Virus record (IMG/VR): IMGVR_UViG_3300046616_000188 | DNA length: 64,000 bases | Strand: one strand, 5' to 3' | DNA from: a virus | In this document: positions 19,471 to 20,269 of the stretch, one piece after another | How positions within the stretch are numbered: the first letter of the stretch is position 1 | Layout: each line of letters opens with the position of its first letter | Made by a program: the position numbers and the translations under genes | The notes under the pieces: generated by a model | The model's database searches: none | The model's input: the letters and a program-made list of their open reading frames with translations, nothing else | Told to the model about the DNA's origin: nothing

Positions 19471-19661
19471 ACGACCTTTGTCGTAACGTGCCTCCGAACA
19501 TTCAATTGAATCTCGTTACACGATGCTTCATACACCGCGTTGATAACTACGTATATGTCTTCGCCATGTCGGACCAAATCATCACGAGACGGAACGGCGG
19601 GAAGATTAACGAACATGTCGTCACAGTCTTCATCGTTAACATTTAAACGAAAATTAATCAT
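19437..19661 (-). CDS. Hypothetical protein
   Basis: ATGA overlap. Confidence 0.6.
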   Translation of the reverse strand: MINFRLNVNDEDCDDMFVNLPAVPSRDDLVRHGEDIYVVINAVYEASCNEIQLNVRRHVTTKVVWYFHGWGENT

Positions 19662-20269
19662 ACTTTATCCCCTTTGTCCCAAACGATTATCACAGATTCA
19701 ATGTATTCATCATTAAGGCTAAACGTATCTCGTGGCAAGTAATATTTTCTTACATCGGGGAGGAAACTTGAAATTTCATCGGCATATCTGACATGGATCA
19801 GTGCGACGAGTCTTCCACCTTCTCTGAGCAGAGCAGCAGCTTTCTCGATATGCGTGACGCAGTTCTTGTGAGGCGGATTCATGACGACGCGGTCAAACAA
19901 CACGCCGCAAAAATCGTGAAGCAGGAAATCCCTGTTGAGACAAGTAACGTGCTCGCCATAAAACGCGCTCAATCTGTCATAATTTCTTTTGTTAAGCTCA
20001 ACAGCCGTAACGGCATGGTTCCATGACAAATGTTCCACGATAGCGCCAGTTCCAGCGCTTGGTTCAAGAACATTATGACGTGGCATGATACCTGCCAGCG
20101 CAATCATATCTTCGGCTAACCATCTAGGAGTATTGGTCGCTGGAAGATTGGTGCGAAATTTGGTCCGGTGGGATAGGTTCGAACTACCGACACCTGCGTT
20201 TTCATCCCTTGTCCCTGTCGTGTCCTGATAGACGTTACTCAGTTCTTTTCTTGGATCAGCTTCACCCAT
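19658..20269 (-). CDS. Class I SAM-dependent amino-methyltransferase (N6-adenine type)
   Basis: TPRWLAEDM, VLEPSAGTG (motif I), VVMNPPH (motif IV); AGGA RBS before ATG 20269. Confidence 0.8.
   Translation of the reverse strand: MGEADPRKELSNVYQDTTGTRDENAGVGSSNLSHRTKFRTNLPATNTPRWLAEDMIALAGIMPRHNVLEPSAGTGAIVEHLSWNHAVTAVELNKRNYDRLSAFYGEHVTCLNRDFLLHDFCGVLFDRVVMNPPHKNCVTHIEKAAALLREGGRLVALIHVRYADEISSFLPDVRKYYLPRDTFSLNDEYIESVIIVWDKGDKV

Follow-up and report, generated by a model that had tools for sequence, protein, structure and literature searches.

We analyzed a stretch of 64 000 nucleotides (nt) of viral DNA (IMG/VR virus record IMGVR_UViG_3300046616_000188, hereafter the window), the source phage of which is a T4-like soil phage, and found a methyltransferase (MTase) gene whose reading frame runs through the 3' half of a tRNA-Phe-shaped gene. 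The tRNA-shaped gene is split by a 147-nt insert, and translation of the MTase from a Shine–Dalgarno (SD) sequence and start codon inside this insert (ATG 20269) is strongly supported by sequence comparison. It appears probable that one transcript is put to two uses, as the body of a split tRNA-Phe and as the message of a coupled operon for the MTase, a 74-amino-acid (aa) open reading frame (ORF) and a cupin-fold protein. More than 20 lineages of phages, including cultured ones, show such a predicted overlap between folded RNA and protein gene. The features of the locus are as follows.

20417..20449 (-), promoter-like signals upstream of the tRNA-shaped gene, read from the sequence: TTGACG (20449..20444), 17 nt, TATATA (20426..20421)
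20424..20417 (-), T4-late-type TATAAATA, overlapping the TATATA
20353..20383 (-), 5' half of the tRNA-Phe-shaped gene (ARAGORN, introns allowed): acceptor 5' strand CUGGUGG, D arm, anticodon-stem 5' strand CUGCG
20206..20352 (-), 147-nt insert between tRNA nt 31 and 32, bearing the SD sequence, the start codon and MTase codons 1–21
20278..20283 (-), SD sequence AAAGGA, 8 nt before ATG 20269
20161..20205 (-), tRNA 3' half, also MTase codons 22–36: loop AUGAAAA, anticodon-stem 3' strand, variable loop GUGUC, T arm, acceptor 3' strand and ACCA
19658..20269 (-), MTase coding sequence (CDS), 203 aa, from the ORF list: leader residues 1–40, domain from about residue 41
20105..20107 (-), ATG 20107 (Met55), start chosen by automatic gene callers (149-aa product P0001), rejected here
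19437..19661 (-), 74-aa ORF, the ATG of which overlaps the MTase stop (ATGA) and the stop of which overlaps the probable GTG start of the cupin gene (GTGA)
18976..19440 (-), cupin-fold protein, about 154 aa from GTG 19440 or 164 aa from TTG 19470

Translation start of the methyltransferase

It had originally been predicted that ATG 20269, which has a ribosome-binding site and lies inside the insert, is the only ATG, GTG or TTG before the TP motif of the MTase, and inspection of the sequence confirmed this. The MTase frame is open only from 20287, an in-frame TAG (20290..20288) being located six codons upstream of the ATG, and no CTG, ATT, ATC or ATA is present in this frame between the tRNA 3' end and the TP codons. 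The core AGGA (20281..20278) lies 8 nt before ATG 20269. The identification of codons 22–36 with the 3' part of the tRNA also held: DENAGVGSSNLSHRT extends from the last base of the insert through C75 (nt 32–75 of the tRNA), A76 opens codon 37 and the anticodon GAA is read as a Glu codon.

Comparison with related loci (designated L001 and so on) pointed in the same direction. In 11 distinct loci, no stop codon interrupted the MTase frame between the upstream start and the TP motif, whereas the other two frames contained 32 and 42 stops; the chance of an open frame for each locus, estimated by shuffling, was 0.06–0.54. The upstream start was inside the insert in 10 of these 11 loci, and the phase from tRNA end to TP motif was identical in all of them. 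Pairs of SD sequence and start codon like that of the window were present inside the inserts of 12 further loci. For most in-insert starts the duplex with the anti-SD sequence had a predicted energy of -5.6 to -10.8 kcal/mol, with weaker values (-2.8 to -4.9 kcal/mol) in L022 and L023; ATGs located after the tRNA had no SD sequence and duplex energies above 0. In six loci the NLPATxTP N-terminus of the enzyme starts at the final A of CCA, and therefore there is no room for a separate ribosome-binding site.

The overlap also takes other forms. The annotated CDS of Rhizobium phage RHph_Y1_11 starts 10 nt upstream of the tRNA and reads through all of it; in the GenBank record (L001:2872-3591, MN988558 EVC30_106, 239 aa, 'putative DNA methyltransferase') the first 79 codons silently include the whole insert-bearing tRNA-Phe gene. 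L031 (598-790) has no insert; its MTase ORF opens with an SD sequence and ATG located 13 nt ahead of the tRNA-like gene, all 77 nt of which are part of the frame. The T arm is read in three different frames in L031, L036 and the group of the window; therefore, it is the open frame and not the peptide that is conserved.

Automatic gene callers predict that translation starts at ATG 20107 and yields 149 aa, in which case the upstream open frame would be an accident. The public gene calls for the MTase (P0001) do start there, and relatives conserve a Met at the position of Met55. However, this start would delete the invariant T47 and P48 (motif X), the conserved LPAT, A52 and part of helix 49–59, a segment that aligns to ETPPEVVDFM of M.TaqI in profile searches. 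The SD sequence of ATG 20107 is weak (-2.7 kcal/mol versus -5.6 kcal/mol for ATG 20269), the protein sequence ahead of Met55 is conserved across loci, and the stop-free upstream frame described above would have to be fortuitous. Thus, a start at ATG 20107, which the original prediction had itself named as its counter-case, is contradicted by the loss of T47 and P48 and by the comparison with relatives, and we consider it very improbable.

Selection on the tRNA body

With introns allowed, ARAGORN identified tRNA-Phe(GAA) at 20383..20161 with the 147-nt insert after nt 31; ARAGORN with default settings and Rfam called no tRNA at these positions. A complete cloverleaf of 76 nt, with a 7-bp acceptor stem, D, anticodon and T arms, GAA, A73 and CCA, is obtained only after conceptual removal of the 147 nt, and the window then has U33 and A37. 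The acceptor stem is formed by the first 7 nt of the RNA paired with MTase codons 33–35. All seven pairs are kept in 23 of 23 loci, with compensatory exchanges among GC, CG, AU, UA and GU at five of the seven positions. C1–G72 is present in all loci except two with A–U, A73 in all except L034 (U), and the CCA is encoded in every locus. The acceptor stem is thus fully paired with compensatory changes while the frame stays open, and therefore the same bases are kept both as folded RNA and as ORF. Judging from these patterns, the bases of the tRNA 3' half are under selection as a tRNA fold as well as codons.

It might be argued that the two halves are the decaying relic of a tRNA gene hit by an MTase cassette, with no function as RNA, and the failure of standard tRNA finders and Rfam to call the gene would fit such decay. 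Against this, all seven acceptor pairs have been kept in every locus with many double changes, the D and T arms have been kept as well, and both halves persist across lineages in which the MTases share only ∼30–60% identity. We find the idea of a relic scarcely credible.

Recurrence and linkage in relatives

The closest homologs of the MTase in cultured phages were found in Rhizobium phage RHph_Y1_11, Caulobacter phages CcrColossus and CcrPW and Brevundimonas phage Bajun, each of which carries one or two insert-bearing tRNA-Phe(GAA) genes directly upstream of the MTase gene, all unannotated. Linkage was judged where a contig extended far enough upstream, in phage, viral-contig and metagenome loci. 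Every metagenomic MTase homolog with readable DNA had the same upstream tRNA-shaped gene, and in a search based on the cupin, 12 of 12 viral contigs and the informative metagenome contigs carried it. The expected synteny of MTase and split tRNA was therefore borne out in every homolog above ∼40% identity with readable DNA. The converse case, MTases without tRNA linkage, which the original prediction had also named as a counter-case, was found among distant homologs only (30–35% identity, domains of larger proteins), the closer ones all being linked. No related viral contig was found with the MTase of the window alone as query, and the cupin alignment had no match in 185 579 species genomes.

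Some relatives depart from the layout of the window. L031 and L025 (L025:1938-2140) keep the tRNA-like gene, the MTase and the cupin but have no insert, and both show an aberrant anticodon loop, UAGAUUA for L031 and the 8-nt UAGAUUAA for L025. In L034 (2402-2530) the cupin gene is immediately preceded by a tRNA-like gene of 75 nt (loop CGAACAG, discriminator U), and no MTase was seen between them; the cupin frame is open through the tRNA-like gene, with candidate starts at ATG 2402 upstream or at TTG 2468 in the T arm, the latter with a strong SD sequence. In L008 (∼2790-2860), L010 and L017, the 110 nt upstream of the listed tRNA end in a second tRNA 3' half (…GGAUGAAAAC…GGUUCGAAUCC…ACCA), and therefore these close relatives have tandem copies, as in Colossus and Bajun. 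The window has a single copy.

Nature of the insert

The insert could be a true intron, removal of which yields a working 76-nt tRNA-Phe, so that only the unspliced precursor could be translated into MTase; alternatively, the RNA may never be spliced and would be a stable tRNA-shaped molecule in which the insert is a functional domain, serving as substrate, scaffold or specificity factor with the MTase and the cupin. Several observations favor an intron. Removing the 147 nt leaves a canonical cloverleaf with U33, GAA, A37, A73 and CCA; GAA is invariant in the 17 insert-bearing loci with a parsable loop; and the ends of the insert pair together, which brings both junctions close. In addition, CcrColossus (28 ordinary tRNAs) and Bajun (27) have the module and no canonical tRNA-Phe, whereas phiCbK, which has no MTase match, has a tRNA-Phe (L046:11897-11972) heading the syntenic Val-Ile-Ile-Val-Gln-Gln cluster. 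This complementary distribution of canonical tRNA-Phe in Caulobacter-type phages speaks against an RNA that is never spliced, as does the presence of exactly 7 nt with GAA beside the anticodon stem, as in a real anticodon loop.

On the other hand, the insert resembles none of the recognized intron classes examined. Rfam searches over 601 nt, including matches at E≤10, gave no family for the insert and no Intron_gpI (core P3–P9) in the window, and the Colossus inserts had no group I match in Rfam. Group I introns have a U at the end of the 5' exon, and this pairs with an internal guide sequence. Here the base before the 5' junction is G31, or U in L010 and L017; the exon of the window ends in CUGCG, and no CGCAG-like guide was found in the first 30 nt of the insert, although the terminal G of group I introns is present. 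The inserts are 129–200 nt long; group I introns of tRNA genes are of the same size or larger. By inspection, the junctions form no bulge-helix-bulge, with two 3-nt bulges on opposite strands separated by 4 bp, the 5' junction being in or next to a continuous helix (0–2 unpaired nt) and the 3' junction bordering a 7-nt bulge; a splicing endonuclease was not searched for. Moreover, among the 17 insert-bearing loci, 11 have U at position 33 and the other 6 have C, A or G (2 each); L011 and L015 have C at position 37. The insertless relatives have the aberrant loops UAGAUUA(A) and CGAACAG.

The same departures at positions 33 and 37, found in several lineages despite a strictly kept tRNA body and CCA, speak for an insert that stays in place. 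The persistence of the module with insertless, non-canonical tRNA-like genes (L025, L031 and L034), an MTase without any target-recognition domain (TRD), and promoters in five loci placed for transcription to start at the tRNA 5' end also argue for a stable RNA. However, apart from its closing helix, a single covarying hairpin and a pseudoknot that may form, the window insert has little consensus structure. When six close relatives were folded with RNAalifold, the tRNA arms were recovered but, inside the insert, only a 4-bp hairpin over the start codon. Taken together, a stable, never-spliced RNA seems quite possible, at a little short of an even chance, and a true intron is somewhat less likely; for the final RNA we lean slightly to the ∼223-nt form that keeps the insert over a spliced 76-nt tRNA-Phe.

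Some further features of the insert were recorded. The window and its closest relatives share the element GAAAGGA..AGUAAUG. A conserved YUGAUC is present in the loop of the first hairpin. In the window (20300-20330 and 20215-20225 (-)), GUCCUGAU could form a pseudoknot with AUCAGGAC, located 90 nt further downstream, and relatives have weaker equivalents; it should be noted that GAUC is self-complementary. A K-turn at the 7-nt bulge was considered and dropped, the required GA being present on the opposite strand in one locus only. A YrlA match in Colossus (25 bits against a cut-off of 69) was attributed to plain tRNA likeness, as it extends from the 3' half of one tRNA into the 5' half of the tRNA that follows.

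Methyltransferase and cupin

The MTase contains the sequence NLPATNTP and the motifs X (TP47-48), I (EPSAGTG69-75) and IV (NPPH131-134); T47, P48 and A52 are invariant, and LPAT is conserved, across loci. An AlphaFold2 model has a mean predicted local distance difference test score (pLDDT) of 86, with residues 1–40 at 45–57, the fold starting from about residue 41 and helix 49–59 spanning Met55. The best matches in profile searches of PDB included M.TaqI (residues 16–128, 1.5e-13), Dim1 (3e-12) and KsgA/Erm, and Foldseek gave Dim1, TrmN and M.TaqI at E ∼1e-9 and template modeling (TM) scores of ∼0.6. The motif order X-I-IV and the Rossmann-like fold are those of the catalytic domain of gamma-class N6/N2 amino-methyltransferases, in which motif IV has the form (N/D)PP(Y/F/H). 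No curated NCBIfam or Pfam model scored above its cut-off (MTS, PF05175, 13 bits against 23), and no TRD was found in the protein, which ends ∼40 residues after motif VIII and is modeled as a single domain. The suggestion that the enzyme might act on tRNA in the manner of TrmN6/YfiC was not upheld as to family membership: no curated model reaches its cut-off, motif IV is NPPH and not NPPY, and the best profile is that of the DNA enzyme M.TaqI, with the rRNA enzymes Dim1/KsgA close behind. On the basis of sequence and model, the MTase is best described as a minimal M.TaqI/Dim1-like class I amino-methyltransferase domain, which may act on either DNA or RNA. For Colossus, gp358 has been described as a possible rRNA methyltransferase of undetermined function, and the split tRNAs were not noticed (Gill et al., 2012; PMC3556154).

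The order of motifs X (TP), I (EPSAGTG) and IV (NPPH) is shared with M.TaqI, Dim1, KsgA and Erm. The MTase of the window differs in having only ∼160 residues, without the TRD of M.TaqI or the C-terminal RNA-binding domain of KsgA and Erm, and in a motif IV that ends in H (M, K, R or F in relatives) as against Y or F in M.TaqI/Dim1-type enzymes.

The cupin gene follows the MTase gene in every related locus that has the MTase, with 52–84% identity between proteins and 47 invariant columns in alignment A4. In the window the two genes are connected through the 74-aa ORF by ATGA and GTGA overlaps, and in other loci they overlap directly; from this arrangement, the MTase is predicted to be translationally coupled to the cupin. 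Conservation of the 74-aa ORF is weak (LPAVP…EIQL) and limited to the four closest loci; the other groups lack it. The cupin has the motifs HxH...H and GHHxC, with H54, H56 and H103 invariant, and matches phrog_4786 ('cysteine dioxygenase', 1e-37); there was no match in Pfam and no sequence match in PDB at E≤10. Its model (pLDDT 85) resembles thiol-dioxygenase-type cupins (YubC/CDO; Foldseek TM ∼0.55). A complex predicted for MTase and cupin reached an ipSAE of 0.39, compared with 0.02 for the best control; the runs agreed in at least 80% of contacts and partner pLDDT was at least 78. Among 80 solved complexes 58 pass the ipSAE mark, as do 2 among 110 mismatched pairs; those that pass with a value of ≤0.60 comprise only 7 of the 80, together with both mismatches. 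We took this as weak support and did not count the complex as evidence.

Transcription and genomic context

The promoter-like signals at 20449..20417 precede the tRNA-shaped gene, and therefore a single RNA would bear the tRNA body and the operon. TTGACG-17-TATATA was absent from the promoter consensus scan, as the last base of its -10 hexamer is A; in five relatives TTGACA/G is located 37 nt before the tRNA 5' end. An internal candidate, TTGGTA-18-GATAAT (20368..20339), is not conserved in relatives and was taken as chance.

The T4-like affiliation of the phage is accompanied by rIIA/rIIB, NAD-salvage and DNA ligase genes; the longest contig in public data measures ∼188 kb. Also present in the window are an NMN adenylyltransferase/Nudix gene, a nicotinamide phosphoribosyltransferase gene (NAD salvage), rIIA and rIIB homologs and a 663-aa ATP-dependent protease homolog (52902-55433 (+), 56820-60221 (+), 28589-30580 (-)). 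The window sequence was found in 17 rhizosphere DNA sequencing runs, and reads of four of them yielded nothing but short contigs that matched the window exactly, without variants or joints.

Proposed mechanism

In the mechanism that we propose, transcription would start upstream of the tRNA-shaped gene and yield an RNA consisting of a tRNA-Phe body split by 147 nt, followed by the operon. For ribosomes starting at ATG 20269, the final 64 nt of the insert, the whole tRNA 3' half (45 nt) and a spacer of 29 nt would encode a leader of ∼40 residues, poorly conserved and unstructured in the model; the folded domain that begins with NLPATNTP would come next. Such ribosomes would have to melt the anticodon stem, the T arm and the acceptor stem. 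Conversely, folding of the tRNA body would pair the 5' end with codons 33–35, a state that should be incompatible with ribosome transit, and 3' processing at CCA would sever the start codon from the enzyme domain. Each molecule would therefore be either an enzyme message or the precursor of a tRNA-shaped RNA, and the balance between the two would set the amount of enzyme. It was proposed in the original prediction, and we likewise infer, that tRNA maturation and MTase translation are mutually exclusive on the same molecule.

Because the RNA, the MTase and the cupin are inherited together, the tRNA-shaped RNA is probably a substrate, scaffold or regulator of the two enzymes; an MTase domain without a TRD would need something that supplies specificity. 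In a bolder version, which we hold only tentatively and regard as unlikely on present weighing, the insert-bearing RNA would represent a new class of phage RNA, one that provides the leader and the start of the coding sequence for its partner enzymes and also serves these enzymes as substrate or specificity subunit: the TRD-less MTase, with the cupin, would act on or with the RNA encoding its own N-terminus, and tRNA-processing enzymes would switch the molecule from message to functional RNA.

A number of observations weigh against the proposal of one transcript with two uses. The fold of the insert is no more stable than that of shuffled sequence (z 0.5–0.7), and the window sequence was found in no RNA runs, compared with the 17 DNA runs. 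The wider MTase family consists mostly of domains in large phage proteins annotated as DNA methylases, and the MTase may methylate DNA, the RNA being unrelated cargo. In six lineages (Colossus/PW, Bajun, L021, L029 and L025) the MTase gene has its own SD sequence and ATG after the tRNA, and therefore the overlap is not essential to the module. In L021 (1515-1630) an intrinsic terminator and a TTGACA promoter lie between the insert-bearing tRNA and the MTase gene; therefore, the insert exists there without a role in MTase translation. The overlap thus appears to be common but not obligatory, and neutral capture of an upstream start could account for it. Finally, for the phage of the window we infer the start site, the processing and the exclusivity alike.

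Comparison with known systems

Transfer-messenger RNA (tmRNA, SsrA) is comparable in that tRNA-shaped acceptor and T-arm halves flank a segment with the start of a reading frame, the RNA being both tRNA-like and messenger. However, the frame of tmRNA has ∼10 codons, is entered without SD sequence or AUG, stops short of the 3' half and depends on SmpB, whereas in the window an SD sequence and AUG open a 203-codon frame that passes through the T arm, the acceptor strand and the CCA and continues into the gene of an enzyme, and a full D arm and anticodon stem are present. No tmRNA, with its tRNA-Ala-like domain, pseudoknots and internal tag ORF, was found in the window by ARAGORN or Rfam.

Group I introns in anticodon loops of bacterial tRNAs are known from tRNA-Leu(UAA), tRNA-fMet, tRNA-Arg(CCU) and Azoarcus tRNA-Ile, some with intron ORFs (PMC3984707). 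They share with the window an interruption of the anticodon region, an insert that ends in G and an ORF that can start in the insert. In contrast, the 147-nt insert has no Rfam match and no P1 guide, its junction follows nt 31 and not the loop U, and its ORF leaves the insert through the exon and encodes a methyltransferase, not a homing endonuclease. 'Enigmatic' introns in tRNA genes have been reported for Lak megaphages, where phage tRNA introns were called previously unreported (Devoto et al., 2019; PMC6784885). These are likewise conserved inserts of no recognized class in phage tRNA genes; they differ, as compared by description and not by sequence, in that they concern other phages and tRNA-Tyr/Thr, with no linked MTase or overlapping frame described.

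In archaea, the intron of pre-tRNA-Trp is a box C/D guide with which a separate enzyme complex methylates the exons of that same pre-tRNA; the bulge-helix-bulge endonuclease then excises it. An insert tied to methylation and to an unspliced precursor is common to both systems. Unlike the archaeal intron, the insert of the window encodes the start of the enzyme itself, and is not known to act as a guide. Our literature searches found no description of an MTase gene starting inside a split tRNA.

Implications

Protein and tRNA genes are normally annotated as separate entities, whereas here the same 45 bases are kept as T arm and acceptor strand and as enzyme codons, in many phage lineages. The public gene calls for this MTase family would consequently be wrong in opposite ways, either truncated at an internal Met or extended silently through the tRNA. 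Since four cultured phages carry the module, the start site, the splicing and the target of the enzyme are directly testable at the bench. Our results thus point to an unclassified kind of tRNA insert tied to a dedicated methyltransferase–cupin pair, and to what may be a natural system in which RNA folding and processing compete with translation on one molecule.

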